Positions 505-28,502 of a stretch of DNA of 64,000 nucleotides are shown here, piece by piece. The first letter of the stretch is position 1, and every line of letters begins with the position of its first letter. The stretch is taken from contig CAVQVW010000004.1 of assembly GCA_963717285.1 (NCBI GenBank), forward strand, positions 28,494 to 92,493. The letters are read 5' to 3'. Position numbers and translations under genes: made by a program. Source of the DNA: an uncultured Thermoleophilia bacterium (GTDB lineage: Bacteria > Actinomycetota > Thermoleophilia > UBA2241). Under the pieces are notes generated by a model. It made no database searches and was not told where the DNA came from. It saw only the letters and a program-made list of their open reading frames with translations.

Positions 505-742
505 GGGAGTCTCCTTGAGGCAGAACTCAGACCGAGAAACGGCCGTCGGCTTCTGTCGAGCAACTCCTCAGCATTCTGCAGAATCCCCTTGCCGCAGACC
601 GCATGCTTCTGCAGAAGACCCTACCACCAGCCTAGTGAACGTCATACAAGACCGCGAACGCGAACGGGGAGACGAGGAACGAGAATTGCGAAGGTACCGC
701 GATTCCGGCAAATGCTGCCTGGTGCTCGATGGTGGCAGGCGC

Positions 743-776
743 TCTCGTCGGCAGAATGTCGGCATCTGGCAGCAAT
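743..776. repeat. Element-end sequence with three arm-type direct repeats, identical to 27519-27552
   Basis: tctCGTCGGCAGaaTGTCGGCATcTGGCAGCAAt occurs identically at 743-776 and 27519-27552. Confidence 0.85.
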
Positions 777-830
777 CCGGGCGATCGTGCGGTGAGACCG
801 GCTCACGAAGATGCCATATGCAGGAACTTC

Positions 831-880
831 TGGTGACCCCGGCTGGAATCGAACCAGCGACACCAGGTTTAGGAAACCTG
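831..880 (-). repeat. att core: duplicated 3' half of tRNA-Arg(CCT)
   Basis: 837-880 is identical to 27613-27656 (anticodon arm through T-arm), and the copy ends in CCA at 831. Confidence 0.92.
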
Positions 881-5014: not shown

Positions 5015-5926
5015 TTACTTGGGAACCATGCTATCTGCTGCGGTCTTCTGGTTGTAGAGCTCGAGCATCTGCTGCGGCGTGAGTCGTCGCATCCGCGTCT
5101 CTCCCCGGTGCCTCAGCGAGCGGTGCCGGCGTCGTGAGTTGTACCAGCCGACGTAGGTGACGAGAGCCAGCTCGAGGTCGAGGCGTGTCGGCCAGCGGTA
5201 GCGGCTGATGAGCTCGCGCTTGAGCGTCGAGATCACGCTCTCGGCCATGGCGTTGTCGAGCGCCGTGCCGGTGCGCCCGCGGCTCGGGGCGATGCCGGCT
5301 CTCTTCAGCCGCTCGGTGTACTCGTAGGATGTGTACTGGGAGCCGTTATCGCTGTGAGCCACGAGGCCACCTTCATGCTCCTGACGGGCGGCGAGAGCCA
5401 TCTCGAAGGCGTCCGTGACGAGACTCTGGCGCATGTGCGGTGCCAGCTGCCAGCCGACGATGCGCCGCGTATGGACGTCGAGCACGAGGGCGAGGTAGGC
5501 CCAGCCCTGCCAGGTGCGCACGTAGGTGAAGTCGGAGAGCCACACGGCGTCGGGGCGGGTGGCCGTGAAGTCCCGGCGCACGAGGTCCGGGGCGGCCAGC
5601 GGGGCGAGGCCCGGCAGGGTCGTCTTCTTGCTCTCGACCGGCCCCACGCCGACGAGGCCGTTCCCGCGCATCAGGCGCTCGACGGTGCAGCGGGCGACCC
5701 GGACGCCGGTCTCGTTCAGCTCGTCCCAGATCTTGAGCTGGCCGTAGACGCCGCCGCTGCCTGCGTGCACGCGGCGTATCTGGGCGAGCAGCCAGACGTC
5801 ACGCAGGGCGCGGGCCGAGGGTGGCCTGGTCCTGCGGGCGCGGTAGGCGCTCACCGAGACCTCGAGCTCCCGACAGATCGGCTCGACCCCGAGGCGGGCG
5901 CGGTTCGCATCGACGAAGGCGCTCAC
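5015..5926 (-). CDS. IS3-family transposase OrfB (DDE integrase core)
   Basis: VWLSDFTYVRT...HSDNGSQYTS...DNAMAESVISTLKRE...WYNSRRRH. Confidence 0.93.
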   Translation of the reverse strand: MSAFVDANRARLGVEPICRELEVSVSAYRARRTRPPSARALRDVWLLAQIRRVHAGSGGVYGQLKIWDELNETGVRVARCTVERLMRGNGLVGVGPVESKKTTLPGLAPLAAPDLVRRDFTATRPDAVWLSDFTYVRTWQGWAYLALVLDVHTRRIVGWQLAPHMRQSLVTDAFEMALAARQEHEGGLVAHSDNGSQYTSYEYTERLKRAGIAPSRGRTGTALDNAMAESVISTLKRELISRYRWPTRLDLELALVTYVGWYNSRRRHRSLRHRGETRMRRLTPQQMLELYNQKTAADSMVPK

Positions 5927-6225
5927 CTCGGACGGGGCTGGTCGAGCTCGCGGGCGAAAAACACGCTCGCCGCCTTGAGGATCTCGTTGGCGCGGCGCAG
6001 GTCACGGACCTCGCGGCGCAGCGTCGCCAGCTCCTCGCGCTCGGCGCTCGCTAGCCGGTCGGCGCGGGTGCCGTCGTCGGCCTCGTCCTGGCGCACCCAG
6101 ACGCGCAGGGTCTCGTGGTGGATGCCGAGGTCACGCGCGACCGCGGCGATCGGACGCTCCGACTCGCGGGCGATGCGCACACTGCGCTGCCGGAACTCCG
6201 GTGAGTACTTCGATGGTCTGGCCAT
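5923..6225 (-). CDS. IS3-family transposase OrfA (HTH)
   Basis: MARPSKYSPEFRQRSVR...VARDLGIHHETLRVWV...LRRANEILKAASVFFAREL; overlaps orfB. Confidence 0.93.
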   Translation of the reverse strand: MARPSKYSPEFRQRSVRIARESERPIAAVARDLGIHHETLRVWVRQDEADDGTRADRLASAEREELATLRREVRDLRRANEILKAASVFFARELDQPRPR

Positions 6226-6799
6226 GAGACGCGGTCTCCCTTCTCTGAGGATACGATCCTCCAAGAAACGGAGCCTCCGTCAAACCCGGGGCGTGCCACA
6301 CACGGGAGCCGAATCCGTCAATGGAGACCGCCGTCATGGTCCTCCTGGTGGTCGCGGTCGCCGCGACTGACCGGACCCCAATCGTCGGTCCACCTCCTAT
6401 GTTGGTGCGAGAGGCGTGGGATCCGGCGTGTCCGTTGTCGGCGAGCGAAAGGCGACCTGATCCCCGCAATCGTTCTGCGCACAGGTTATGGAGTTCTCCG
6501 AGCCAGACAAACAGGCGCGGTTTGCAGCCTTCTACACCAAGCTGCCGACGAGGTGCCGACACGCCCCAGATGCTCTGGCTTCCGCCAGGGCGGGTCAACT
6601 CCATAGGACCCGGCTCCCTTTTGTGGCCTAGTCCCCGCGACTGACAGCGCCACGAGCCCTCGGCGGACCGCGTGACAGGCCCCCCTCGGCTGCTGCCAAG
6701 GATCGCCCACTGCGTTGACAAGCGAGCCGTCGTAGTAGGCCTGTTCTCTCGTCCCCTTCCCGCAGTACGATGGCAACGTCTACTGGTGGTGGGAGACGG

Positions 6800-8026
6800 A
6801 TGGGCCCGAGCCTTCGTGGTATCGCTCGACTTGCGGCTTTCGCCGCCGCTCTTCTCGCGCTGCTGGCGCTGTCTTCCTGCGGCAACTCCCTCTCGGGAGA
6901 GGTGACCAGCGGGACGGGCAAGACCCCCATCCCCCAGGCGACCGTCGAGATCTCGGGACGTACCATGGTCACCGATGCGGAAGGCCGCTTCTCTGCCGAG
7001 GAGTTGGACGAGGGGGCGCAGAAGGTCACCGTCACGGTCGAGGGCTTCGAGCCCTTCACGACGGAAGTCGACGTGAGCGGGGAATCCACAGCGACGCTGT
7101 CGCTGCCAGACTCGGAGCTGCATGGCCGTGTCGTCGCGCTCTCACCCGATGAGTCCCCCCTACCGGCTGCCTCGGTCGCCCTCGACGACGTACCGCTCCC
7201 TCTGGATGGCCAGGGATCGTTCTCGGCTGTCGGACTCCCACCGGGGAAGTATCGGCTCACTGCTGGCGCTCCCGGCTACACAACCAAGCGCCTCCGAATC
7301 ACCCTTGAAGCCGGTTCCAACGAGCATGAGTTGGCCCTGCCGCTCACCCTCCTCGCATCAGAGTCCGCCTATCTGACAGCCATCCAGAAAGGAGAGGAGG
7401 ACAAGGCCTACGCGATGGTCGAAGCTACAACGACAGCCAAGATGAGTCAGAAGCTGTGGCGCAAGACACACGGGACGGCGGGAAGGAAGCTCAAGGCCTA
7501 TGAGCTGGGGAAGCCCAAGCGGCTGAACGGCTGGACCTCGCCGGAGACCGGCAAGTCCTTTCGGTCCGTCCGTGAGGTGCCCGTGACCCTGACCTGGCAG
7601 TCGTCGGGAGGCGGCTCGTGGAAGGAGGCGTCAGCCGACTACTGGGTCCTCGGCAAGAAAGGCTGGGAGTGGGTGGGCTCGTGGCAGGCTCCGACCATCA
7701 AGTCGTTCGCGCTGCGCGGCGAAGTAGCCCTGGGCTCGGGCAGCGTTGCCCTCATCATGCACGGGACGCTCACCGTGAGAACAGCGAGCCGCAAGCCCAT
7801 GCAGGCCAGGATCGCGTGCTGGGCGGATACCACGGGAGGCAGACGCGAGATGACGTTCACCCTGCCTCCCCCCAAGGAAGGAACGAGCACGCGCACGCAC
7901 GCTCTGAGCTGGACGCAGTCGACGGGGCTGCTCAACGCCTCGCACTACTTGGCGACCGCGGAGGTCGGCCTGCAGGGGAGATGGAGCAAGCCCTATGCCA
8001 CCGACTGGTGGTATGAGTATGAGTAG
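6800..8026 (+). CDS. Lipoprotein with carboxypeptidase-regulatory-like (Ig/transthyretin-fold) repeats
   Basis: Lipobox LSSC and repeated xSGxVT...PIPQATV...TDAEGRF / LPPGKYRLTAGAPGY motifs. Confidence 0.75.
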   Translation: MGPSLRGIARLAAFAAALLALLALSSCGNSLSGEVTSGTGKTPIPQATVEISGRTMVTDAEGRFSAEELDEGAQKVTVTVEGFEPFTTEVDVSGESTATLSLPDSELHGRVVALSPDESPLPAASVALDDVPLPLDGQGSFSAVGLPPGKYRLTAGAPGYTTKRLRITLEAGSNEHELALPLTLLASESAYLTAIQKGEEDKAYAMVEATTTAKMSQKLWRKTHGTAGRKLKAYELGKPKRLNGWTSPETGKSFRSVREVPVTLTWQSSGGGSWKEASADYWVLGKKGWEWVGSWQAPTIKSFALRGEVALGSGSVALIMHGTLTVRTASRKPMQARIACWADTTGGRREMTFTLPPPKEGTSTRTHALSWTQSTGLLNASHYLATAEVGLQGRWSKPYATDWWYEYE

Positions 8027-8918
8027 AGAGCTGCGAGTTGGGTTGCTCCCGCTGCTGCCGATCGTGACGGCACTGCTGCTCGCAGGATGCAGCGGGAGTA
8101 TCTCGGGGCAGGTCTTGAGCGCCACTGAGGGCGAGCCTGTCTCCGGCGTCACGGTGAGTGCAGACGGCACCTCACACACGACGGGACCCGATGGCACGTA
8201 CACGCTTCCGGAGGTGGCGACAGGAAGCCAGCTAGTCTCCCTGGAGAAGGCGGGATTCCCACCCCAGACGATAGAGGTCGATGTCCAGAGAGGGGCAAAC
8301 ACCGCCGACCTGAACCTCGCGGACGCCTTCCTCGAGGGTCGCATTCGAGAGATCGCCGTGAAGCCGAGGCGCATCCGGCGTGCCACCATCGCCGTCGACG
8401 ACCGAAGAACAGAGAGCGATTCGACGGGCTACTTCCGGATGAATCAGCTTGCGCCGGGCCCCCATTCGGCCACGATCACCGCTGCCAACCACGAGCCGCT
8501 GGACAAGAACATCGAACTCAGTGCCGGCCCGAACGAAGTGGACTTCAAGCTGCCCCTGACAGCTGTCGGTACGGCCAAGCGCTACGTGTCGGAGATCCGC
8601 TACGGCAGGCCTTCCGAGGCGTACCGGTACGTGAATCCAGATGTGAGGCAGGTCCTCAGGCAGTCCGAGTGGTACGCGCGGGAAGGGCAGCTCGGCGCGG
8701 ACATGCTCTCCTACCGGATCGCGGGCAGCCGCGCGATCGGGACGTGGACCTCACCAGACACCAAGAAGTCGTACTCATCGGTGCGAGAGGTTCGCAGAAG
8801 CGCCGTATGGATGGTGAGGATCGGTGCTCCCAACACGTGGGTGGAGCGGCGTGTCGACCACTGGGTCCAGGTGAAGGGCGTCTGGTACTGGCTAGGCACA
8901 CGCGAGGGGATCTTCTGA
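8013..8918 (+). CDS. Paralogous lipoprotein with carboxypeptidase-regulatory-like repeats
   Basis: Lipobox LAGC, ISGQV...PVSGVTV...TGPDGTY, and a C-terminal WTSPxTxKS..SVREV domain shared with the upstream gene. Confidence 0.75.
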   Translation: MSMSRELRVGLLPLLPIVTALLLAGCSGSISGQVLSATEGEPVSGVTVSADGTSHTTGPDGTYTLPEVATGSQLVSLEKAGFPPQTIEVDVQRGANTADLNLADAFLEGRIREIAVKPRRIRRATIAVDDRRTESDSTGYFRMNQLAPGPHSATITAANHEPLDKNIELSAGPNEVDFKLPLTAVGTAKRYVSEIRYGRPSEAYRYVNPDVRQVLRQSEWYAREGQLGADMLSYRIAGSRAIGTWTSPDTKKSYSSVREVRRSAVWMVRIGAPNTWVERRVDHWVQVKGVWYWLGTREGIF

Positions 8919-10565: not shown

Positions 10566-10697
10566 GGATGAACCCTGCTCGTCCTGCACTGATCCCCGCT
10601 CCATTCGCTGCCCCGTGGCGCTCGCTCGAAGTCTACCGGAGGAGCATTGCGGAGAGCGAGGGGTTCCACCCCGAAATCGGGCCGCACAGGTCTGCAC

Positions 10698-10905
10698 GAC
10701 CTGTCGGACGCCGAGAAGCGCTGCTCAGGGCGCCCTCGCCGCTCAATCGCCGACGCACCGTAGTCGAGCATCCTGCGTCGTAGTTCGCGTTTCGCGTCCT
10801 CCGAAGCCCCGTTCTGACCGCGTTCGAGCCTAGGAGGTCGTCAGAGCGGCCCGAAAAGCGAAGCAGGGCGAACCAGGATGACGCTATCTCAGCGCTGATG
10901 CGCAC
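10698..10905. repeat. 208-bp direct repeat, copy 1
   Basis: Ungapped match to 16717-16924 with about 19 substitutions by manual alignment. Confidence 0.9.
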
Positions 10906-11151
10906 ACGCATCGTGACCTACGGTCGCGGCGGGGAGCCTTCGGTGCTCCCTTCACCACCGTCGTTCCCGGGATGGGTGACGAATAGGATGGCGGTCGAGT
11001 GGAACTACGGTTCCGCGTTAGTTGACATATGGTTCAAGGACCGACCGAGGAGATGGCTGGTGCCGCAGAACACCGAACTGCTTGAGGCTAGACGACTCGA
11101 TGGTGAGGCGGCGGCCCGCGACCGGGAGTCTACGCCCGCAGCGGCGGAACG

Positions 11152-12735
11152 ATGACGGCCTCGCACTTCTTCACGCTCTCGCAAGTTACGGGGCGCATCG
11201 CCGAGGTACTCGCGCCGCACATGGGCAAGACCTTTTGGGTCCGGGCCGAGATCTCGTCAGGCAGGGAACGCGGTGGCTCCTTCTACTGCGACCTCGTCGA
11301 GACCGGCGAGAACGGTGCGATCAGCGCCAAGATGCGGTGCACTCTTTGGAGCCAGGACCTGGCGAGAATCAGGAAGAAGTTCGAGGAGGCTGGCGTTCCC
11401 CTGGTGTTCGATAGCGGCACCGAGGTCGGACTGTTGTGCTCGCTGCAGTACGACGCGCGCTATGGCCTCTCACTCCAGGCGCAGGACGCCGACCCGGCGT
11501 TCGCCGTCGGAGAACTCGAGTTGCGACGCCGCGCCATTCTACAGCGCCTTGAGAAGGAAGGGCTCTTCGAGCCGAACAAGCGCTTGCCGGTACCGTTGCT
11601 GCCCCAGCGCATGGGCGTCGTCACCAGCCGCTCGAGCGCGGCGTTCAGCGACTTCCTCAAGACGCTGACTCACCCCAAGTTCGGCTTTCGCATCCTGGTC
11701 GCCGACACCCAGATGCAGGGGCCGCAGACCGAAGCCTCGGCCCTGCGCGCGCTCGATGCCCTCGAACGCCTGAAGCCCGACCTCATCGTCATCATTCGCG
11801 GCGGCGGCAGCCGTACCGACCTTGCGTCTTTGGACAATGAGGCGGTCGCCCGACGTATCGCCGCCTGCCCGATACCTGTGTGGAGCGGGATCGGCCACGA
11901 GACCGACGAGAGCGTCATCGACTACGTCGCCAATATGCGCCACAAGACTCCAACGGCAGTCGCCACGGCCATCCTCGAACGCTTTGAAGAAGCTGCGAGC
12001 CACCTTGAGGTTGGAAGAGAGCGCCTCGGGACCACCTGGGCCTATCGTCAACAGATGGAGCGGCGGCGGTTCGAGCGCGACAGGACAGGCATACGCCAGG
12101 GAACGCGCAAGCTGGTTGACGTTTCAGGCGCGCAACTCGAACAGCGGCGGCAAGCTCTGCACCAGCGGGTCCAGAGGCGACTTGCCACCGAGCGCACCGC
12201 CCACGAGGCGACCCAGCAGCGAATCGTCTCAGCAAGCCGCTCCTTGCTACGCGCGGAGGCCGAGCGTCTTCGGAGCGCACGTAAACGCTTCCGCACCACT
12301 TGGGCCTATCGCCGCGAGATGGAGCGCCGCCGCTTCGAGCGCGACCGCACGGGCTTCCGGCACGGCACACGCAAGCTCACCGATGTAGCGCGGGCCGAAC
12401 TCGGGGGGCGCCGACACCGCTTCGCCGGCGCCGCTCGATCCGCCCTCGTCGTGATGGAGAGCGAACTGCGCGCACGCCGATCGCGCTTCACCCCGAAGCG
12501 CGCCCAAGCGCGGGCGGAGGCCGAGAGCAAGCGTCTGACGTCCAAGAGCCAGGCATTGCGGCTGGCTGACCCCGAGCAGAATCTCAAGCGAGGGTTCGCC
12601 CTCGTGTACGACCGCTCAGGCCGGGTGATAGCCTCAGTGCGCGGGCTTTCCCGAGGCGAGACCTTGACTACCCGAGTAGGCGACGGAAGCATCGCGAGTA
12701 GCGTGGAGAGCGTGGAGGTGGACGAACATGACTGA
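11152..12735 (+). CDS. xseA: Exodeoxyribonuclease VII large subunit with extended coiled-coil
   Basis: OB fold FWVRAEIS...FYCDL, GVVTSRSSAAFSDF, IIRGGGS..DL, SGIGHETD..VIDYVA...TPTAVA, and C-terminal PEQNLKRGFALV. Confidence 0.92.
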   Translation: MTASHFFTLSQVTGRIAEVLAPHMGKTFWVRAEISSGRERGGSFYCDLVETGENGAISAKMRCTLWSQDLARIRKKFEEAGVPLVFDSGTEVGLLCSLQYDARYGLSLQAQDADPAFAVGELELRRRAILQRLEKEGLFEPNKRLPVPLLPQRMGVVTSRSSAAFSDFLKTLTHPKFGFRILVADTQMQGPQTEASALRALDALERLKPDLIVIIRGGGSRTDLASLDNEAVARRIAACPIPVWSGIGHETDESVIDYVANMRHKTPTAVATAILERFEEAASHLEVGRERLGTTWAYRQQMERRRFERDRTGIRQGTRKLVDVSGAQLEQRRQALHQRVQRRLATERTAHEATQQRIVSASRSLLRAEAERLRSARKRFRTTWAYRREMERRRFERDRTGFRHGTRKLTDVARAELGGRRHRFAGAARSALVVMESELRARRSRFTPKRAQARAEAESKRLTSKSQALRLADPEQNLKRGFALVYDRSGRVIASVRGLSRGETLTTRVGDGSIASSVESVEVDEHD

Positions 12736-12940
12736 TGAGGAGCCGAAGCAGACCTACGAGCAGAAGATGGCGCGCCTGGACGAGATTCTGACGCGCATCG
12801 ACAATTCCGAGACGCCGATCGACGAACTCGCCGAGGATGTCAAGGAAGGTGCGCGTCTGATCAAGGACCTCGAGGCGAAGCTCAAGGAAGTCGAGACCGA
12901 GGTAGCGGACGCCTTCAAGGAACTGGAAGAGAAGGCGTAG
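12728..12940 (+). CDS. xseB: Exodeoxyribonuclease VII small subunit
   Basis: TYEQKMARLDEILTRIDNSETPIDELAEDVKEGARLIKDLEAKLKEVE; overlaps the xseA stop. Confidence 0.9.
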   Translation: MTDEEPKQTYEQKMARLDEILTRIDNSETPIDELAEDVKEGARLIKDLEAKLKEVETEVADAFKELEEKA

Positions 12941-13834: not shown

Positions 13835-14833
13835 TCAGAAGCCGTACCGCTCCTCGATCCAAGCACACCACGACGTCCATTCCGATCCCTCGTCGCGCGC
13901 CTTCACCCACGCGATCCAGTCCTGGTGCGTGAACACGCAGAACGACGCCCTGCCGGGGAACAGGCCTCCCCAGTCGCTGACGTCATTGAGACCGGTCCTG
14001 CGCAACGAGTGCCTGAGCGTGTCGTTGCGCGCATCGAGGGCGACGCAAGAGACGACGAACTCGTACTCACCCGATGCCGCGATACCTTCGGCGAGTGCCT
14101 GCTGGCGCAGAAGCTGGTAGCCGGCCGTGGCTCCCGGACAGCACCGGAGACCAGCCAGCCGCTCGCTATCGACGGCGTCCCCGAGGCGCTCCCAGTACTT
14201 GCGACCCCAGGCGTGCTGATGGCAGAGCGTCGGGTCTGCCGAGACCGCGCCGGCATCCAGGCAGCGAGACCTGTCCGGGTTCGCCGGGCGAGACGCCGAA
14301 CCGACGGACCGTCGGGCGGAGCAAGGGTAGAACGAGTGCTCGGTCAGCTTGTTCTCGACGAGCAGCAGCCCCGTGCGACCGTTGACCAGGACGGCGATGT
14401 CGGGAGACGTCTGGCCACTGCCGCGCGACCCTCCGTCCTCGCCGAGAAGCTGCGCCGGCGACAGTTCGCCGGTCTCCGCGTACTCCAACTCGACCGAGTC
14501 CACAGTTCGGATGCCGCCGTGCACCTTCGCTCGAAGAAACGCGGCCAGAAGTGCGCGTCCGCCGTCGGTCTGACCAAACGGGAAGTAGGTGTTCACGCCG
14601 GACACCCAGGAGCTCTTCAGGTTGTGCGAGCCCGCATGTCGAGTGACACCATTCTTCGGCAAGTACTCAGAGAGTGGAGCGCGGACCTCATCCCACAGTG
14701 CGAGTTCCCAGAGTGATGCCGGCAGTATCCAGGGACGCCGGACCCCGTTCTGGGAACCCTGCTCGATCGTCTCGATGTGGTGGCCGCGCCACTCGACCTG
14801 CCGCTCGCTCATGTACTTGTCGAAGTCACGCAT
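13835..14833 (-). CDS. Putative restriction-endonuclease-fold protein (PGN_0703/REase-ARP-like)
   Basis: HNLKSS...N.YFPF...LEY...GQTSPDIA...LVENKLTE..F..C, Cys cluster, YQLLRQQALA. Confidence 0.65.
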   Translation of the reverse strand: MRDFDKYMSERQVEWRGHHIETIEQGSQNGVRRPWILPASLWELALWDEVRAPLSEYLPKNGVTRHAGSHNLKSSWVSGVNTYFPFGQTDGGRALLAAFLRAKVHGGIRTVDSVELEYAETGELSPAQLLGEDGGSRGSGQTSPDIAVLVNGRTGLLLVENKLTEHSFYPCSARRSVGSASRPANPDRSRCLDAGAVSADPTLCHQHAWGRKYWERLGDAVDSERLAGLRCCPGATAGYQLLRQQALAEGIAASGEYEFVVSCVALDARNDTLRHSLRRTGLNDVSDWGGLFPGRASFCVFTHQDWIAWVKARDEGSEWTSWCAWIEERYGF

Positions 14834-15124
14834 CCGTCTCCGATCAGAGCGCCGCTGGTGGCGGCCCGACAGTATCTCTCCCACGGGCAGGTACTCCGCA
14901 CTCTGCGTGAGATCACGGCCGCAAGCTGCCACCGCACCTCACGACGCTACCACCGATCTCGAAGGGCGACCAGAGGCCTCTCGATGGCGCCCTGCTCAGC
15001 GGGTGCGGCCTCGGAGCAGTCGGGCGAGTGCGGGTGCGCCCTGACTGTCTCAGAGGGCGCACGATTCATCTCCGACCTTTGGTCGGGGTGCTCCGGCTCT
15101 TCCGTCACCTCCCCCGTGTACCAT

Positions 15125-16539: not shown

Positions 16540-16716
16540 GGATCCTCCTCCCCTCGGACCGTCGGGTCGATCCGTATCGGCTTCCATAGTGACCCGAGAC
16601 AGGACCCGCTACTGGCTTCGTGCGGCCGCCGGTCCAGCAAGTGCTGTAGTGCCTGCCGGGATCAGTGTAGACCGGGTCGCGGACGGAGCGCTGTCCCAGC
16701 GGGAACAGGACACCCA

Positions 16717-16924
16717 GACCTGTCGGACGCCGAGAAGCGCTGCTCAGGGCGCCCTCGCCGCTCAATCGCCGACGCACCGTAGTCGAGTGTCCTGCGTCGT
16801 AGTTCGCATTTCGCGTCCTCCGAAGCCCCGTTCCGGCAAGGCTCGAGCCTGAGAGGGCGGGAGAGCGGCCCGAGAAGCGAAGCAGGGCGAACCAGGATGA
16901 CGCCATCTCGGCGCTATTGCGCAC
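16717..16924. repeat. 208-bp direct repeat, copy 2
   Basis: Match to 10698-10905; starts at the stop codon of the last gene of the leftward element operon. Confidence 0.9.
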
Positions 16925-17249
16925 GAGCTTCGCGCGTCTCCGACTGCACTGGAGAGTCCTCGACGTCCCCCCTGCCATCGTCCACGGGATCGCCCTCGCG
17001 CGCCACCAGCGCGATCTCGATCTCTGCGGCGAGCTCCCGAGCGTACCCATCGCCCTCGCGTTCGATCCAGCCGCACCAGGAGAGGTCCTCGGAGGGGGGC
17101 CAAGTCGGCGATCCGGCCCTCCGCAGCGAGAGGCGCACCAGACGGCCGAGGTGGGCGTGGGCGCAGAGTTCTGCCGATATCCTCTGTAGACGCGCGAGGC
17201 GCCGACGCAGCTCGCAGGGCGAGGGTCGAGGCGGTGGCGTGCGTCTCAC
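16914..17249 (-). CDS. Hypothetical element protein
   Basis: Start overlaps the stop of 17246-17659 (GTGA coupling) within the leftward operon. Confidence 0.5.
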   Translation of the reverse strand: MRRTPPPRPSPCELRRRLARLQRISAELCAHAHLGRLVRLSLRRAGSPTWPPSEDLSWCGWIEREGDGYARELAAEIEIALVAREGDPVDDGRGDVEDSPVQSETREARAQ

Positions 17250-17659
17250 GGGGTCTGCTCCTCCAGAGCGTTGAGGTCTGTCTCGAGGCGGACGAGGTCG
17301 GCCTCGAACGCCTCCAGCGAGAGGGGCTTCTCCCGGGTGAGACGCGCCAGGCCGAGCAGTGCGACCAGCCTGTCGAGGGTGGCGCGGGCGGAACGCAGGT
17401 CCCCGGCCGAGAGCTGACGTCTCATGATGAGCTCATAGCCGGCGATCGCGAGGCCCAGCTCGGCACGGCTGTCGACCTCGGCGCTCTCGCGCAGGCGCTC
17501 GAGGGCGGCGACCACGTACTGCTGGGCGGCACGCTCCCCGAGACCCCACCGCTCGCGCGCGAAGCGCACCACCGAACGACGCGGGGCGCGCGAGGCGAGG
17601 AGCTCAGAGAGCTCGGCCAAGCGCTGCTCGCGCTCGGCCCTAGTCGCTCGCCGGGGCAC
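17246..17659 (-). CDS. HTH protein, phage terminase-small-subunit-like
   Basis: N-terminal HTH (RSVVRFARERWGLGERAAQQYV), helical C-term ending LDRLVALLGL, and position directly after the ParB-MTase. Confidence 0.45.
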   Translation of the reverse strand: MPRRATRAEREQRLAELSELLASRAPRRSVVRFARERWGLGERAAQQYVVAALERLRESAEVDSRAELGLAIAGYELIMRRQLSAGDLRSARATLDRLVALLGLARLTREKPLSLEAFEADLVRLETDLNALEEQTP

Positions 17660-18904
17660 GATGCGCCTGCTTGCCGGTGAAACGCTCCCAGCGGGTCACG
17701 GCGACGTCGACGAAAGCCGGCGACGTGCTCGAGCGCGTAGCAGCACCCGGCCCGTGCTTCTCGCCGGCGATCAGGGCCGTGCCGGAGCCGCAGAAGGGCT
17801 CGTAGATGAGGCCGCCCGGCTTCGTGTGGTACCCGATGGGGCGACGCACGAGCTCGACCGGCTTCATCGTCGGATGCACGGAGCCCGGGGCGTCCTCGAT
17901 CCGGCTCTCGATCTCCCAGACCGCCTTCGCGTCGGCGGGAGGCTTGCTCTTCGGCATGTGGCCCTCCTGCCAGCCGTACATCATCGGCTCGTAGTCCCAC
18001 ATGAAGTGGCTGTAGGTCAGCACACTCCGTGTCTTCTTCCAGATCAGCACCTGATGGGGGAGGAGGCCGACCTTGCGCCACGCCTGCCAGACGACCTCGG
18101 TGCGCATGATGCCGAACCACTGGTAGATGGCGGCGTCGTCTTCGAGGGCGTGCTCGAGAGCCGTCTCCAGGAAGTCGACGTAGAAGTCGACCGAGTGCTC
18201 GTGGTCGAGGTAGGCGTCCCAGTGCTTGTCCTTCGTCGGCGCGCCCCTGTTCGCCTCGCTCGCCGGGTGGGCGCCGCCCTCGTAGTCGACGAGGTAGGGC
18301 GGGTCGGTGGCCATCAGTGCGGCGCGCCTGCCGTCCATCAGTCTGCTCGACGTCGTCGGCGTTGGTCGCGTCGCCGCAGAGCAGGCGGTGATCGCCGAGA
18401 AGGTAGAGGTCGCCGGGCTTGGCGACCGGCTCCTCGGCGGACATCCGGCACCTCGTCGGGGTCGCTGAGACCCGCGGTCGGCTCGGCGAGCAGCGCCGCG
18501 AGCTCTTCCGGATCGAAGCCGGTCACATCGAGCTCATAGCCCAGATCGATGAGCTCGCCAAGCTCGAGGGGGAGGAGCTCGGCGTCCCAGGAGGTGTCCT
18601 GGGCCGTGCGATTGTCCGTCAGCCGGTAGGCCTTGGCCTGCTCGGGAGTCAGATCCGTCGCGACGTGCACGGGCACCTTCTCGAGCCCAAGACGTTGCGC
18701 AGCGAGAAGTCTCGTGTGTCCGGCCAGAACCGTGCCGTCTTCGTCGACGACGATCGGTTGCCTCCAGCCGAACTCCGCGATCGAGGCGGCGACCTTGGCT
18801 ATCGCCGTCTCGGGGGCGACGCGGGGATTGCGCCGGTACGGAACGGGCTTCTCGATGGGCCACCAAGCAACCGCGAGATTCGTCTGTGCACTTCGGCTCA
18901 TCAT
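17640..18904 (-). CDS. ParB-N-domain / N4-N6 DNA methyltransferase fusion (several frameshifts)
   Basis: ParB part: PYRRNPR...SIAEFGWRQPIVVD...AGHTRLLAA...AYRLTDNR. MTase part: LGDHRLLCGDAT, TDPPY, HPTMKPVEL, EPFCGSGT. Confidence 0.88.
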
Positions 18905-22506: not shown

Positions 22507-23655
22507 ATGAGCCGTGAAATCGGGACCAACGGGGAGTCCGACCTGGGCCTCTGGCGCGCTCTACGCGCCAGCGCCGTGGCACTAGACAATCACGGGGTCT
22601 TTCACCTGCGCACGTCCCACGAGCAACAGACCGCGGAGAGCTTCCTCGAACAGCGCGAGCGCTGGGATGCCGATCCCGAGCGCGCCGAGGCTAGGCACGA
22701 GCTGCGCTTGGGACCGCTCGAATACGAGCCGCTCAGTCAGCCCCGCCTGCCGAACGCCCTGGCGCGCATCGCCTCCGCCGCGGACACCGACTCCGAACGC
22801 ATCAGAAGCGTGAAGCTCAAGACCGAGCGGTGCCATCTCGCCAAGGGTGCACGGCGTCAGGATGCGAAGTGGCTGGCCCGGCACGAGGCCGCAGAGACGG
22901 CGGAACGGGCGGCCGTCAAGGAAATCGAGCGCTTCTACCGCTCCTACGGTCCACTCGGCTACCAGGCGGTGAAGAGCGACGAGTCCTGGCCCGAGAGCGG
23001 CGAGCCTCTCGGCTGGATCATCGCCGAGGCCCAGACGGTGCGCTTCGTCCTGGAGGTCATCGACGCCCTCAACCGCGACGATGTGCGGGATCTGAAGGCG
23101 GCGTTGGCCAGCCGGCGGCGACAGGACCCTGACGCAGAGAGCGAGCCACCGGACCCGGTGCTTGGCGGCCGGCTTGTGCACTACGCCGTCTGTCGCAAGG
23201 CAGAGTCCCACAGCTACAGCTGGAATCCAGACAAGGAGCCCCCGTTGGGCAGGGACGTCGGCTGGTACGACCCCAACGCTCGCTATCGACTGCGAGGCGG
23301 GGATGAGGCGGCGCTCACCGAGCACGCAGGCGACATCGTCAGAGATCTCGTGCGATTGCGTCTGCCCGAGCAGAAGTACGACTTCCTCTTCCGGGACGGC
23401 CGCTTCTGGGAGGTGCCACGCGGTGGTCCCTTGCTGCGAGCCATCTGGATACACATCAAGAACACCGCGACGAAACGCACCCAGATCCGTCGCTGCCGGG
23501 AGTGTGGCACGCCGTTTCTTGTCACCGATCGTCGCCAGCGATTCTGTCCGCCGGAGGGGCCAGGCGGCAAGTCACGCTGCCTCGCCAGGCGGCAGATGCG
23601 CGAGCTGCGAGCCGAGCGAGCGACAGCAAGTGCCGCTGCGCAGGACCCACAATGA
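22507..23655 (+). CDS. Protein with C-terminal CGNR-like zinc finger, putative regulator
   Basis: IRRCRECGTPFLVTDRRQRFC...SRCLARRQMRELR; ATGA overlap with the integrase. Confidence 0.6.
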   Translation: MSREIGTNGESDLGLWRALRASAVALDNHGVFHLRTSHEQQTAESFLEQRERWDADPERAEARHELRLGPLEYEPLSQPRLPNALARIASAADTDSERIRSVKLKTERCHLAKGARRQDAKWLARHEAAETAERAAVKEIERFYRSYGPLGYQAVKSDESWPESGEPLGWIIAEAQTVRFVLEVIDALNRDDVRDLKAALASRRRQDPDAESEPPDPVLGGRLVHYAVCRKAESHSYSWNPDKEPPLGRDVGWYDPNARYRLRGGDEAALTEHAGDIVRDLVRLRLPEQKYDFLFRDGRFWEVPRGGPLLRAIWIHIKNTATKRTQIRRCRECGTPFLVTDRRQRFCPPEGPGGKSRCLARRQMRELRAERATASAAAQDPQ

Positions 23656-24898
23656 GAGGCTCGGTCCGCCGCCGCGGAGACCCCGGCTCTTGGGAGTACA
23701 TCGTCGATGTCGGCCTGGCGGCGGCGCAACGCTGCACGGTCTGCAACAGGCGGTTCTGGATCGAGCGCCGCCCCAAGGATGACTGCCCCAGCTGCGGCGG
23801 CTGGCTCATCGAGACCGAAGAACGCCGCCGCCAGACGAAGGCCGGCTTCTCGACCCGCAAGGCCTGTCTCGCCGAGATGAACACGCTGCTCGTCGCCGTC
23901 GAGAAGCAGACCTACCAGGCGCCGACCAAGGCGAGCGTGCGCGAGTACCTCACGAAGGAGTGGCTGCCGGCCGTGAAGGCGACGATCCGCCCCTCGACCT
24001 ACAACTCCTACGTGCAGCATGTCGAATGTCACATCGTGCCGCACATCGGCTCCGTAAAGCTGCAGAAGCTCTCCGGAAGTCGGGTCAACGCCCTCTACGC
24101 GACACTCGCCGAGACTGGCAAGAAGGACGGCAGAAGCGGCCTCTCGCGCAGACGATCCACCACGTCCACGCCTGCCTGCACAAGGCCTGCAAGGACGCGG
24201 TGCGTTGGGGACACATCTCGAGGAACCCGCTCGATGCCGCCGACCCGCCGAAGACCAAGGGCGACGGCACGAGGGAGATGCGGACCTGGAGCGCCGAGCA
24301 GCTCGGGGCGTTCCTGACCTCAGTCGAGGACGATCGCCTCCACGCCCTCTGGCACACCATCGCCATGACCGGCATGCGACGCGGGGAGGCTCTCGGTCTG
24401 CGCTGGAGCGACGTCGACCTCGAGAACGCGAGACTATCGGTGCGACGCGCCCTCATCCCGACGAACCGAGACGTGGTCGTCAGCGAACCGAAGACGGCCA
24501 AGGGCCGACGTGTCATCGCCCTCGATCCGGACACCGTCGAGGTGCTCAAGGGACAGGCAGCCCGTCAGCTCGACGAACAGCGGGAGTGGGGCGAGGCCTG
24601 GACCGACAGCGGCCTGGTGTTCACGACGGAGAACGGCGAGGCGCTCGACCCGGAGTCGGTGTCGCGCTACTGGCGTCAGGCCGTGAAGAAGTCGATGCTG
24701 CCGCCGATCCGCCTGCACGACCTGCGGCACACGCATGCCACCCTGGCTCTGCAGGCCGGCATCCACCCCAAGGTCGTGAGTGAGCGCCTGGGTCACGCCA
24801 CCGTCTCGATCACGCTCGACACCTACTCGCACGCGATTCCGGCGATGCAAGAAGAGGCGGCGGAGAGGATTGCGGGGTTGGTGTTCGCGAGGGCGTAG
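23652..24898 (+). CDS. int: Tyrosine integrase (arm-binding + SAM-like + catalytic), frameshift near 24148
   Basis: MRGSVRRRG...GFSTRK, YLTKEWL, TGMRRGEALGLRWSD, PKT, RLHDLRHTHAT, RLGHA...TLDTYSH. Confidence 0.93.
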
Positions 24899-24931: not shown

Positions 24932-25276
24932 ATGGGCTCGTCCTACCTCTTCTCTTGCCCTTCCTGCGGCTACGAGGCCGAGGTGTCCGGCGGCCTCGAC
25001 TTCGGCATGGCGTGTGTCACCCATACGGTGAGCTGCCCGGACTGCAAGAAGCTGTCGGACGCGCTCATATCGACCAATCCCGGAGATGTGGTAGCGCCCA
25101 GGCTGCTGATCGACGACGAGGAGGGAGATCTCGATGTCCTTCCAGGCACGGTGCCTGAGCAGCTACGCTGCGAGACCGACCGCCGCCATACGGCGCGGCC
25201 GTGGGAACATCCTGGCCCATGTCCCCGCTGTGGCGCGACGCTCGTGAAGGGTGAGCTGGCGGTCGATTGGGACTAG
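24932..25276 (+). CDS. Small zinc-ribbon protein
   Basis: CPSCG, CPDCK and CPRCG motifs; RBS AGGAGG. Confidence 0.75.
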   Translation: MGSSYLFSCPSCGYEAEVSGGLDFGMACVTHTVSCPDCKKLSDALISTNPGDVVAPRLLIDDEEGDLDVLPGTVPEQLRCETDRRHTARPWEHPGPCPRCGATLVKGELAVDWD

Positions 25277-25366
25277 ACCATGCGGAAGCCTCGCATTCGA
25301 GGGTCTCTTCCCGATCGCCGGGAGTGAGCCCAGGAGTCTCGGCGGAAGGGACTGATCTCGTCTATC

Positions 25367-25476
25367 ACCACCCCACCATGTCAAGGTGGTCGCAGGGAAG
25401 TCGGCACACGACGGCGTCCGTCACGCTCGACACCTACTCGCACGCCGTCTCGGCCAAGCAGTGGGCGGCCGCGTAG
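25367..25476 (+). pseudogene. Degenerate duplicate of the integrase 3' end
   Basis: 25421-25445 is identical to 24810-24834 and encodes HTTASVTLDTYSHAV. Confidence 0.75.
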
Positions 25477-25565
25477 AGGGGCGCGGAGTGGATGCCTGCA
25501 GGGACGTGGGTCGCCGACAAGCACGCCGGGCACACGGGTCAGTCAACGCGAACCGGCCGAGACTG

Positions 25566-27337
25566 CTACCGGACCAGCGGCGTCCACACGAGCGCATGCG
25601 ATCCATGGTCGGCGTTGGCGCCACCGACCACCGTCCGCGAATCGTTCATGCCATGCGGCCGGCTGTGATGATGCTCGAAGAAGGGCAGCCAGACTACTTC
25701 GCCTGACGCTCGCCTCAACCACGGTCGCTCGTATCCATCTAGTTTCGTCTCCCCCACAACATCACCCACGTTGTTCATGGATGTGGCATGGTAGCCTGCT
25801 GGAGTCCCGAGACCCTGCCATCCTTCTCCGGGTCCGGCGACAAGAGCGATGCTCTCCCCCTTGGCGTTCCTTGCCGTGCCTAGCACGGTCCCATCGGCAT
25901 TGATCGAGGTTGGGTAGACTCCAGGGCGTTCATCAATCACGTCTGCCCTCCCTGCATTCGGGTTCCACTCCACAGCCTGGCACCGGTGCCCAACGTAGCC
26001 TACGACCAGGACCGTCCCGGCATCATTGGCATCCACCGCCTCCCCCAGTCACAGCCGAAATCGCGAAGAACGACCAGCTCGCCGTCGATCCAAGCCGCTG
26101 GTCGGTGCCCTAGCTGTCCCTTGGCGGGAACATCGACGCTCACCCACCCAGCGGCGAGGCCGCTGTCTGTGATGGCCGTTGCGCAGCTGTGAAGCTCGCG
26201 CTTCTCGCCGAGATCAACGAGACCGGCGGGGCCCCAGCGGACCGCATGCACCGACCCGTCGTACACAGTCGCTGCACCAACGACCTCCCCGTGGGAATTG
26301 ATGTGCCGAGGCGTTCCGATGAAGCCACAGCGCCGTGGCTCGTCGCCAGTCGTCCACGTCCAGGGGACGGCATCCTTCCCGCCGAGAGCATCGGGATGGT
26401 TGCCGTGACCAAGAACCGCATTCATGTCGTTGACGTCGACGGCGCGGCAGTGAACTAGGTCCCGGGGAGCGACCTCATGAAGCAAGTACGCAGCTTCGCC
26501 ATCGGGCACAGCGATCCGTGGTTGACAGGGGGCAAACGGAGCAGTGGGCTTGGACGAGGCGAAAGACGTGCCCACGAGCTTCCCCAGCGGACGCCCGAGC
26601 AGTCGCTCGAGTTCCTTCTTGTCCGGCGTTGGGAAGCCTCTGGCCATGACGCGGTCGGAGATTTGACCCTCGGTGGTCCCTCGCCCGTCTACCCGCACGG
26701 AGGTAACGGAGCAGTCCGGGCTGACAGTCTGGCGCGCAACAGGAGACTCGGAAGCCTCGCGATTCATGAGAGCAAGACGCTTGCGAATACGCTGAGGCTC
26801 GTCCTCCAGCCGAGAAGCTAGGCGCTCGAGTCGCCGGCGCGATGCCCGTGGCACAGCTGGCTTCTGGCCAGCCACGAACACGTGCGGTCGCCCTCGAAAG
26901 CTGCTCATTGAGACGATGAACGACGATTCCGCGTCGCGCATGCGACCAGAGCATTCCTCGAAGTTCGAGGCGAAGGCTACCCCGGGTACGCCCCTTAGGA
27001 AGAACGCCAGCACAAACGTGTGAGGCCGCAACAGCTTGGTTCTGGCCTTGATTGCTGCGATCCATCGAGCGCCCTCCTCCTGGAGAACTCGCGCAACGTC
27101 AGCGGGCTCCGCGTCCGAGAGCCCCGTCAGCCACTCCACGACGAAGTCAGACGTATCTCGCCCGTCCCAGCGACCAACGCCCGTGTAGGAGACGAGGCCA
27201 TCCCAGTCGCCGTACTGCAGCGTGACGCGTTTCGACGCGGCATCACTCAGAAGGTCGCCCGTGTCTGAGTTCGTGAGCCTGTGGTCAGCCGACTGATAGA
27301 TCGTCGCCTCGGTGAGCAGCGTGATGATGAGCGTCAT
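25566..27337 (-). CDS. Ntn-hydrolase (proteasome-beta/HslV-like) domain fused to HAF-repeat beta-propeller; frameshift near 26040
   Basis: After Met removal T1...D17-H-R19...K35...SYTG. C-terminal repeats INSHGEVVG, INADGTVLG, MNNVGDVVG, MNDSRTVVG...HALVW. The two frames join at a G homopolymer. Confidence 0.7.
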
Positions 27338-27518
27338 CGCTTGTGCCAGTCCATCGTCATCGTCTCGGCCTTTCGATGCGTTGCTGCGACAGCTACGAAA
27401 GGAGTCCAGACCTCCCAGCCGGAGCCAGTGGGAGTGTGGCCGGCTGCTGCACAGGGGCGAGGCGTATCAGGCCCGCCGTGCCGTCCCGTGCACGCTTGTG
27501 CGCCTCCGTGACGTCCGT

Positions 27519-27552
27519 TCTCGTCGGCAGAATGTCGGCATCTGGCAGCAAT
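27519..27552. repeat. Arm-type repeats at the tRNA-proximal element end
   Basis: Identical to 743-776, and followed by the shared ccatatgcagg-acttctgg motif. Confidence 0.85.
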
Positions 27553-27606
27553 TCGGGCGAAATGGCCGACACAGCCAACTCAGGAACTTCCATATGCAGG
27601 TACTTC

Positions 27607-27682
27607 TGGCGCCCCCGGCTGGAATCGAACCAGCGACACCAGGTTTAGGAAACCTGTGCTCTATCCACTGAGCTACGAGGGC
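27607..27682 (-). tRNA. tRNA-Arg (anticodon CCT)
   Basis: GCCCTCG TA GCTC AGTGGATA GAGC A CAGGT TTCCTAA ACCTG GTGTC GCTGG TTCGATT CCAGC CGGGGGC G CCA folds as a cloverleaf. Confidence 0.97.
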
Positions 27683-27734
27683 GCCGCGTGAGTGTAGCAG
27701 GAGTGCCGCGAGACCATAGACCCACTCCCCAGGG

Positions 27735-28456: not shown

Positions 28457-28502
28457 GGCAAAATGCTATGTATGCAACCCGCTCACGCGGGAGCTGACTC
28501 CC

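Follow-up and report, generated by a model that had tools for sequence, protein, structure and literature searches.

A predicted proteasome-beta-type Ntn hydrolase fused to a HAF-repeat propeller at the tRNA end of a genomic island, with a possible role in mobile-element conflict

Among the genes on a 64,000-nucleotide stretch of DNA from an uncultured Thermoleophilia bacterium (GTDB lineage Bacteria; Actinomycetota; Thermoleophilia; UBA2241), one joins a domain resembling the beta subunit of the proteasome to a repeat-built propeller. The stretch, referred to here as the window, covers positions 28,494 to 92,493 of the forward strand of contig CAVQVW010000004.1 (assembly GCA_963717285.1), and all coordinates below are counted within it. 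On the minus strand, 27337-25566 is a single gene that encodes one protein of ~600 residues and stands at the tRNA end of a mobile island. An initial annotation of the window described this protein as a threonine protease domain of the N-terminal nucleophile (Ntn) hydrolase type, fused to HAF-type repeats, and proposed that it serves as an effector and sensor against phages. That observation has been confirmed in every detail that could be checked, and there is strong support for the structural interpretation; a function against phages may reasonably be proposed from the gene neighbourhoods.

In the assembly as deposited, the gene is split between two overlapping open reading frames (ORFs), 27337..26000 (445 aa) and 26036..25566 (156 aa; ORF B). 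The first translates as MTLIITLLTEATIYQSADHRLT...SKRVTL...VSYTGVG, and no start codon lies upstream within its open frame. The break falls at a homopolymer (26042..26046; C5 on the plus strand, G5 on the coding strand) from which the assembly appears to have dropped one base. Adding a single G here yields DFGCDWGEAVDANDAGTVLVVGY, which matches the consensus WGxAVDxND of intact relatives in the alignment. The initial annotation had likewise restored one G near ~26040, and two other data sets bear this out. A 151-nt metagenome contig from a public freshwater-sediment run spans 26000-26149 and differs from the window by one substitution and by an additional C inserted after 26041, so that the suspect interval 26040-26046 carries the extra base, at a depth of 2 and in one contig. 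A second assembly, of a near-identical strain, includes a protein fragment (P0009) that crosses the junction in the restored frame. Among the public sequencing runs listed, one DNA run and no RNA run matched; the DNA run contained 8% of the sampled words and covered the gene only at 25858-26149, and its adjoining contig is identical to the window across 25858-26008. The second assembly loses the frame elsewhere, in P0002 after ...EDEPQR and in P0009 after ...VIDER. Because two assemblies of the same gene break at different places, the breaks point to indel errors rather than to an inherited lesion, and long housekeeping ORFs elsewhere in the window are unbroken. The frame break is thus probably an assembly error, and we accordingly treat the gene as probably intact in the organism. 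A scan of 25300-27700 for promoters and terminators found no promoter-like site and a single terminator-like site, which lies inside the gene and is at chance level.

Residues 1-226 (26660..27337) constitute the proteasome-beta-like core. An AlphaFold2 model of the N-domain, computed from an 87-sequence alignment, reached a predicted local distance difference test (pLDDT) score of 93.5 and a predicted template modelling (pTM) score of 0.89, and follows the order five strands, two helices, four strands, two helices and further strands. In a Foldseek search of the PDB, the top matches were proteasome beta, Anbu and a circularly permuted taspase (E about 5e-6, probability 1.00). VIA-align, run with the same model against 48,161 chains, gave a Z of 18.3 to both the microsporidian proteasome beta chain 8adn_Z and Anbu 5loy_A (183-188 residues, root-mean-square deviation 2.9-3.0), placing model residues 2..226 on chain residues 1..210. 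Lower matches included HslV (Z 14.0), BPH (13.2), Connectase (10.9) and other Ntn hydrolases (8-11). In the mature chains 5loy_A, 6e5b_K, 8oix_L, 1m4y_A, 5ovs_A and 6zw0_A, model residue 2 corresponds to chain residue 1. Since the model, Foldseek and VIA-align agree, with residue 2 on mature residue 1, both the fold and the position of a threonine at the nucleophile site are well supported, as the initial annotation had anticipated.

The candidate catalytic residues are Thr2 (27332-27334), Asp18 (27284-27286), Lys36 (27230-27232), Gly53 (27179-27181) and Ser124 (26966-26968), all read on the minus strand. Counted without Met1, the protein offers Thr1, Asp17, Arg19, Lys35 and Gly52, the glycine of the SYTG motif, precisely as had been claimed. 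In the 87-sequence alignment, the columns of T2, D18, K36, G53, S124 and G157 are invariant. Across a set of 153 proteins, conservation is complete for T2 (143/143) and D18 (149/149) and nearly so for K36 (148/149), G53 (147/149), S124 (148/149) and N125 (147/149). In the model, D18 ends strand 12-18, K36 directly precedes strand 37-41 and G53 directly follows strand 45-52. The proposed Met-Thr start also holds, as 125 of 155 family proteins begin with M/V/L-T-[LVF]; most longer gene calls have this motif a few residues in, which suggests that their starts were mis-called. Residues 3-8 form strand S1 of the predicted fold, from which we infer that the protein has no signal peptide. One of the nearest ESM Atlas clusters carries PF00227, the proteasome/HslV family of Pfam, on 14% of its members. 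A three-copy homo-oligomer prediction of residues 1-265 scored 0.00, which, as it was made without controls, is evidence neither way. We consider it very probable that the fold and active site are those of a proteasome-beta-type Ntn hydrolase, and the protein falls outside PF00227 as modelled, though the fold is the same.

Beyond the Ntn core, the model adds further strands and a helix (aa 227-278; 26504..26659, minus strand). This family-specific extension and linker is the least conserved segment of the protein (21.7% mean pairwise identity), apart from a near-invariant Cys271 (118/125). The propeller then begins at 26042..26503, its first part up to the frame break, with a match to TIGR02913 at aa 346-378. 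It ends in the remainder at 25566..26041, on ORF B, which covers blades about 4-7 with the motifs 'LP..HH' and 'DHGxHAxxW' and the stop codon, as read from the HAF_rpt match and the alignment. TIGR02913 (HAF_rpt) describes tandem repeats of ~39 residues and scores 26.9 and 24.8 bits on the two ORF pieces, both above the cut-off of 22.65. The claim that HAF repeats follow the catalytic domain is therefore sound for the window protein, and the same model matches 47 of 80 full-length relatives, with a best E of 5e-46. The propeller was modelled on P0014, a full-length relative of 595 aa that is 48% identical in the N-domain, with 80 sequences. The full-length model (pLDDT 95.2, pTM 0.92) forms a beta-propeller over residues 279-595, and its high pTM implies that the prediction fixes the two domains relative to each other. 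Structurally, the propeller comes closest to that of CylK (7ron; Z 28.8, 303 residues aligned, sequence identity 12%), followed by the seven-bladed integrin alpha (Z 22-24) and the trilobed protease and S9 peptidases (Z 20-22). The propeller is probably seven-bladed, a figure that comes from seven HA..W-type repeats counted by eye in the window protein. Mean pairwise identity is higher in the catalytic core (34.9%) than in the propeller (26.0%). Within the last blade, H564, D584, H588 and W592, together with C272 of the linker (P0014 numbering), are 91-100% conserved. This His/Asp/Cys cluster, which appears in ORF B of the window as 'LPFFEHHH...DHGSHALVW', is more than the HAF motif normally contains; it could bind a metal, serve as another active site or make contact with the Thr1 pocket.

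Next to the gene stands a tRNA-Arg(CCT) at 27607-27682 (minus strand; ARAGORN), which is the integration target and whose 3' end lies 270 nt from the start codon. A direct repeat takes in the 3' 50 nt of this tRNA. Its right, tRNA-proximal copy occupies 27473..27656 and its left copy 697..880, the latter with a truncated tRNA 3' part at 831-880, and 27590-27656 is 96% identical to 814-880. These repeats bound an island of 26.7 kb at about 881-27606. The island's tyrosine integrase (23502..24898, plus strand; Pfam Phage_int_SAM_3 and Phage_integrase) is split into two overlapping frames (23502-24317 and 23960-24898) by a one-base shift near 24150-24160, where there is no long homopolymer; the shift may have arisen in the assembly or reflect genuine decay. 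The gene itself is the last before the attachment (att) site, outside the integrase, from which it is separated by a zinc-ribbon ORF (24932-25276) and a remnant of a second integrase. That remnant, 'TASVTLDTYSHAV' (25390..25476, plus strand), was recognized by eye through comparison with the integrase C-terminus 'HATVSITLDTYSHAI' and is convergent with the 3' end of the gene. This stub suggests that the gene was brought in by an older element or through a rearrangement. The placement of the gene at the att end, between integrase and att site, is as had been claimed. Outside the tRNA itself, the direct repeat (697-813 / 27473-27589) reaches ~130 nt past the tRNA 3' end, with ~75% identity overall and the last ~45 nt near-identical; the att region thus includes sequence similar to the chromosomal DNA that flanks the tRNA on its downstream side.

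Relatives of the protein are numerous and scattered. An exhaustive phmmer search of a metagenome-rich library returned 670 cluster representatives at E<=0.001 and 321 at E<=1e-10, most of them ~600 aa long and matched from the first residue. The gene was not found in any of 30 related genomes, 18 of them of the same genus. A further 400 genomes of the phylum gave a single weak match, a 337-aa variant (L040) that keeps the signature MTLIIT...SDRRLT...NK...SYTG and differs at the C-terminus. Eight loci were located in species genomes, namely in Mycobacterium, Mycolicibacterium, Jongsikchunia, other Actinomycetota, a Gemmatimonadales fragment and one gammaproteobacterium. The family is commonest in Actinomycetota and occurs also in Gammaproteobacteria, Gemmatimonadales and Gordonia phages. 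In the genome loci, the gene has a lower GC content at third codon positions than the genes around it. Its distribution is sporadic, and the gene is horizontally mobile. One full-length relative of the 80 matches tetratricopeptide-repeat (TPR) models (PEP_TPR_lipo, E 7e-19). The L040 variant and the phage proteins, for their part, are without HAF repeats. The catalytic domain may therefore be joined to more than one kind of C-terminal module.

A metagenome scan with an 11-member alignment found 72 loci, of which 45 were examined, the longer ones picked by eye. Removal of loci without a full ORF and of near-duplicates left 23 non-redundant loci with 139 neighbouring ORFs. No recurring partner gene stood beside the related loci. 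Pfam scans found neither an AAA+ unfoldase nor a PF00227 partner in the window flanks or beside 31 related loci, in agreement with the earlier statement that an ATPase or alpha-subunit partner is absent. Nor did PF00227 match anything in the source genome (2.76 Mb, 97% complete). Genes of defence type lie within about 5 kb in three of the eight genome loci: between Mrr-helicase and AbiTii in L005; near SoFic, HNH and a Schlafen-type helicase in L009; and near Dsr1 and PDC-S39 in L007. They also lie near 7 of the 23 metagenome loci, where the neighbours are, locus by locus, HsdR with NotI/methylase; HsdM/S; DUF2397/2398, which we take to be Wadjet-like, with HipA and PIN; Schlafen AlbA_2; Cas1/HNH; M78/DUF4411/Schlafen helicase; and WYL. 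Integrase, transposase or resolvase genes accompany a further two genome loci and four metagenome loci. Of 30 loci, 7 have a tRNA no more than about 1.7 kb from the gene, and 10 have a tRNA or tmRNA within 6 kb.

A homologue is also found in temperate phages. In a Foldseek search of viral models, gp30 of Gordonia phage Nymphadora (5001-5870 of NC_031061.1; L113), a stand-alone Ntn-domain protein of 289 aa annotated as hypothetical, was far ahead of all others (E 6e-14, template modelling score 0.65-0.67, 313 columns), in a match that spans the 300-residue model in full. Its translation runs (M)TLVQTLLT...VSDRRLT...NKAV...FTG...ISNFE. BLASTP aligns it to the window N-domain at 34% identity over 156 aa, with MTL, SDRRLT, NK, FTG and ISNFE in register. 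With the L040 variant as query, tblastn recovered gene 30 in nine records of six Gordonia phages (Nymphadora, BatStarr, Eviarto, TimTam, Herod and Bosnia); with the family member P0142, it found no match in phage records. Gene 30 sits between the minor tail genes, which it directly follows on the strand opposite to theirs, and the integrase region; the tyrosine integrase of this temperate phage is about 3.5 kb away. Nymphadora gp30 thus resembles the window gene in its homologous N-domain, in residing on a temperate element and in its nearness to an integrase, whereas it is only 289 aa long, lacks the propeller and is encoded by a phage rather than on a chromosomal island. Genes expressed from prophages of temperate Gordonia and mycobacterial phages can defend against other phages (PMC6426606). 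In the part of that paper available, Nymphadora is mentioned only as a target phage and gene 30 is not treated.

The family has probably been catalogued before. Fuchs, Alva and Lupas (2021; PMC8665760) reported 22 new proteasome homologues identified by fold and active-site residues. One of these is DAH, the 'Distant Actinobacterial proteasome Homolog', with 77 sequences at nr90, the representative WP_085249540.1 and a range that takes in Actinobacteria, Proteobacteria, Cyanobacteria, other bacteria and phages (PMC8665760). DAH has an extra C-terminal domain without a match to any known structure, and for none of the new homologue families did the authors find the genomic context informative (PMC8665760). 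The window family resembles DAH as described in the retained active-site residues, the distant homology and the occurrence in Actinobacteria and phages; a C-terminal domain is present as well, but here it is a recognizable HAF propeller. The placement of DAH in group II (PMC8665760) also agrees with the window family, whose structure is closer to those of proteasome beta and Anbu than to those of HslV and BPH. By description, the family fits DAH better than any other entry in the 2021 table, and we think it rather likely, from a comparison of descriptions and not of sequences, that the family is DAH. The initial annotation, which did not recognize the architecture as described, is therefore only partly upheld: the DAH entry appears to fit the family, whereas several features go beyond the available text of PMC8665760, namely the identity of the C-domain as a clear HAF propeller, the setting in islands at tRNAs and near defence genes, and the homology to gene 30 of Gordonia phages. 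In the literature searched, we found no paper on DAH function, nor any that ties an Ntn or proteasome-like enzyme to defence against phages or that reports a proteasome-like domain fused to HAF repeats.

Set against better known enzymes, the N-domain has the alpha-beta-beta-alpha fold of proteasome beta, HslV, BPH and Anbu, with the same order of elements and helices H1-H4. Its threonine superposes on Thr1, and an invariant Asp and Lys and a near-invariant Gly and Ser stand at corresponding places. It differs from these chains in having no detectable sequence-profile similarity to them, a 2-residue insertion before the Lys and a 3-residue insertion before the Gly, an extension of ~50 residues and a C-terminal propeller of ~315 residues. 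Like all the homologues except proteasome beta and HslV (PMC8665760), the window protein has no propeptide. In contrast to HslVU and the 20S proteasome, its gene has no ATPase or alpha-type partner and lies on a mobile island rather than in the core genome. The long C-terminal helix H5 of Anbu is missing as well, since the window family continues as strands and propeller. Connectase (the MJ0548 family) likewise has Thr1 and no propeptide, is monomeric, and shows that a proteasome homologue can work outside rings on a single specific target (PMC8665760). It nevertheless has no H1 or H2, and two helices are inserted between its S3 and S4, whereas the window protein has helices at 62-70 and 78-100 and no such insertion; the match is limited to Z 10.9, and Connectase is confined to methanogenic archaea. 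A catalytic domain and a seven-bladed propeller in one chain are found in prolyl oligopeptidase and acylaminoacyl peptidase (S9), in tricorn and in the trilobed protease (Z 20-22). There, however, the catalytic domain is a serine alpha/beta hydrolase or of tricorn type and the propeller is N-terminal or central, whereas here an Ntn fold precedes a C-terminal propeller, and the resemblance is one of architecture only. CylK, a Friedel-Crafts alkylating enzyme, matches in its propeller, while its N-terminal domain and its chemistry are unrelated.

From these observations a mechanism can be proposed. The protein would be one cytosolic chain of ~600 residues, made of two tightly packed domains and without a propeptide. 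Methionine aminopeptidase removes the initial methionine where the second residue is small, and HslV offers a precedent; removal of Met1 in the window protein would expose Thr1. Thr1 would be the nucleophile, aided by Asp17 and Lys35, and would attack peptide bonds as in the proteasome; Gly52 is the candidate for the oxyanion glycine, and Ser123 the putative equivalent of Ser129. Peptidase chemistry at Thr1 is, going by the model, probable though well short of assured. With neither a propeptide nor a partner ATPase, control would have to come from the propeller, which would select or admit the substrate as in S9 and tricorn-type peptidases or bind a specific protein, so that cleavage would be confined to one or a few propeller-recognized targets. 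The genomic company suggests that the bound protein belongs to a phage or mobile element entering the cell, or that a host protein is cut in response. The enzyme would then either destroy a protein of the invader or, on binding one, cleave a protein of the host. This role in conflict, drawn from the gene neighbourhoods, we advance tentatively and with some doubt. The full reading, of a propeller-guided Thr1 peptidase engaged in conflict with phages or mobile elements, seems to us nearly as likely to be right as wrong. A bolder version would make the protein the first proteasome-fold enzyme to act as a single-protein, ATP-independent immune sensor-effector, in which the propeller binds a phage or plasmid protein and the Thr1 site, constitutively mature for want of a propeptide, cuts that protein or a host target, with temperate actinophages carrying a propeller-less version for their own warfare. 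We regard it as somewhat unlikely in this complete form.

Several results weigh against the proposal of a propeller-guided peptidase in conflict. The equivalence of Asp18, Lys36 and Gly53 to Asp17, Lys33 and Gly47 of the proteasome is a reading of the model that goes by invariance and secondary-structure position rather than by measured superposition, and counterparts of the proteasome residues Asp166 and Ser169 were not identified in the window protein. At the sequence level, Pfam gave no PF00227 match for the protein even at E<=1, the only match being a sub-threshold one to DUF3466 on ORF B. A profile of 11 relatives matched no PDB sequence at E<=10, and hhalign against 12 actinobacterial PrcB sequences returned a non-significant probability of 0.4%. 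PADLOC and PHROGs likewise had no match for the window protein, and NCBIfam only the HAF repeat downstream of the N-domain; in PADLOC-DB 2.0.0, no family matched either ORF piece at E<=1. HAF repeats, moreover, are found mostly in secreted proteins. With the window N-domain as query, tblastn found no match in plasmid records or in phage records (the latter to E 10). Many loci have neither defence nor mobility genes nearby, namely 12 of the 23 from metagenomes and 2 to 3 of the 8 from species genomes, and the enrichment of defence neighbours is an impression, formed without a background rate. Finally, a frameshift in both the window's copy of the gene and the neighbouring integrase could reflect real decay of this copy.

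The last of these points leads to the thought that, in the source genome, the gene is a pseudogene and is decaying together with its island, whatever the family does elsewhere. The one-base frameshift in the source assembly would fit, as would the truncated second integrase adjoining the gene, and it is the adjacent integrase, also read in two frames, that keeps this account in play. We nonetheless judge it quite unlikely, seeing that the missing base sits in a five-base homopolymer, that the near-identical contig from a public run has the extra base, that the second assembly (P0002, P0009) is in frame here and shifted at at least two other places, as befits assembly errors, and that the long housekeeping ORFs of the window are intact. 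Granted a working gene, it may still be an ordinary cytosolic peptidase with no part in conflict, its propeller filtering oligopeptides on their way to the Thr1 site, as in acylaminoacyl peptidase, prolyl oligopeptidase and tricorn-type enzymes, and the whole a nutritional or quality-control accessory that hitch-hikes on islands. The propellers of S9 peptidases and the trilobed protease, which match the C-domain at Z 20-22, are in keeping with this, and so are the want of a partner gene or a PADLOC model, the unremarkable neighbours at about half of the loci and the uninformative context reported for the new homologues (PMC8665760). A sporadic distribution (0 of 30 relatives, one weak match in 400 genomes of the phylum), repeated siting at tRNA or integrase ends of islands beside restriction, Abi or Schlafen-type genes, and a homologue in temperate phages are, however, patterns unusual for housekeeping peptidases, and we hold this account to be unlikely.

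A different kind of doubt concerns the chemistry. The Thr1 site may belong not to a protease but to a sequence-specific, Connectase-like transpeptidase or ligase, or to an amidase acting on a non-protein substrate (acylase, ceramidase-like or taspase/asparaginase-type). Connectase (Z 10.9), acid ceramidase and NAAA (Z 11.0) and penicillin and bile-salt acylases (Z 8-9) all superpose from model residue 2; CylK, the best propeller match at Z 28.8, works on small molecules; and H564, D584, H588 and C272 (P0014 numbering) are strongly conserved. Proteasome-type peptidases are nevertheless closest by a wide margin (Z 16-18 versus 8-11), the helices H1 and H2 that Connectase lacks are present, and the Thr/Asp/Lys/Gly pattern is specific to the proteasome family (PMC8665760), all of which makes a non-protease improbable. 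The N-domains could also, after the manner of HslV and BPH, form a hexameric or heptameric ring chamber with the propellers outside as recruiters of substrate. All characterized family members other than Connectase form rings, and isolated proteasome subunits are inactive until assembled (PMC8665760). The predicted firm packing of the propeller on the Ntn domain (pTM 0.92) may, however, occupy the ring interfaces, and the neighbourhoods hold no unfoldase partner; a ring is in our estimation highly unlikely.

The reading of a propeller-guided Thr1 peptidase matters because nearly all that is known of threonine peptidases of the proteasome type concerns ring-shaped degradation machines fed by unfoldases, with Connectase as a monomeric member of quite different role. 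Here, a family of at least 670 metagenome sequence clusters combines a conserved proteasome-type active site and a recognition propeller in one chain. If the reading is true, it would show how a Thr1 site can be kept in check where there is no ring, propeptide or ATPase. The genes of mobile-element conflict may then gain a new class of enzyme, and one of the 22 orphan homologues in the 2021 catalogue would acquire a function. Such an enzyme should also be easy to probe, as covalent proteasome inhibitors and activity probes exist.

The remaining genes of the island comprise an IS3-type transposase (5015-6264), xseA and xseB, a nuclease of REase-ARP type (13835-14932, minus strand), SSB, a DNA methylase, a primase-like protein and an excisionase-like helix-turn-helix protein, in addition to the integrase. 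The methylase is type II-like (17640-18338, minus strand; PADLOC MTase_II, E 2.9e-39), and with the REase-ARP nuclease it means that the island holds other possible defence cargo. Two proteins with CarboxypepD_reg domains are encoded at 6770-8918. The genes for the large and small subunits of exonuclease VII (xseA and xseB; 11152-12940, plus strand), which are normally core genes, lie inside the island. A direct repeat of 228 nt with 88% identity recurs within it 6 kb apart (10686-10913 / 16705-16932), and on the strength of this internal repeat the island may be composite.

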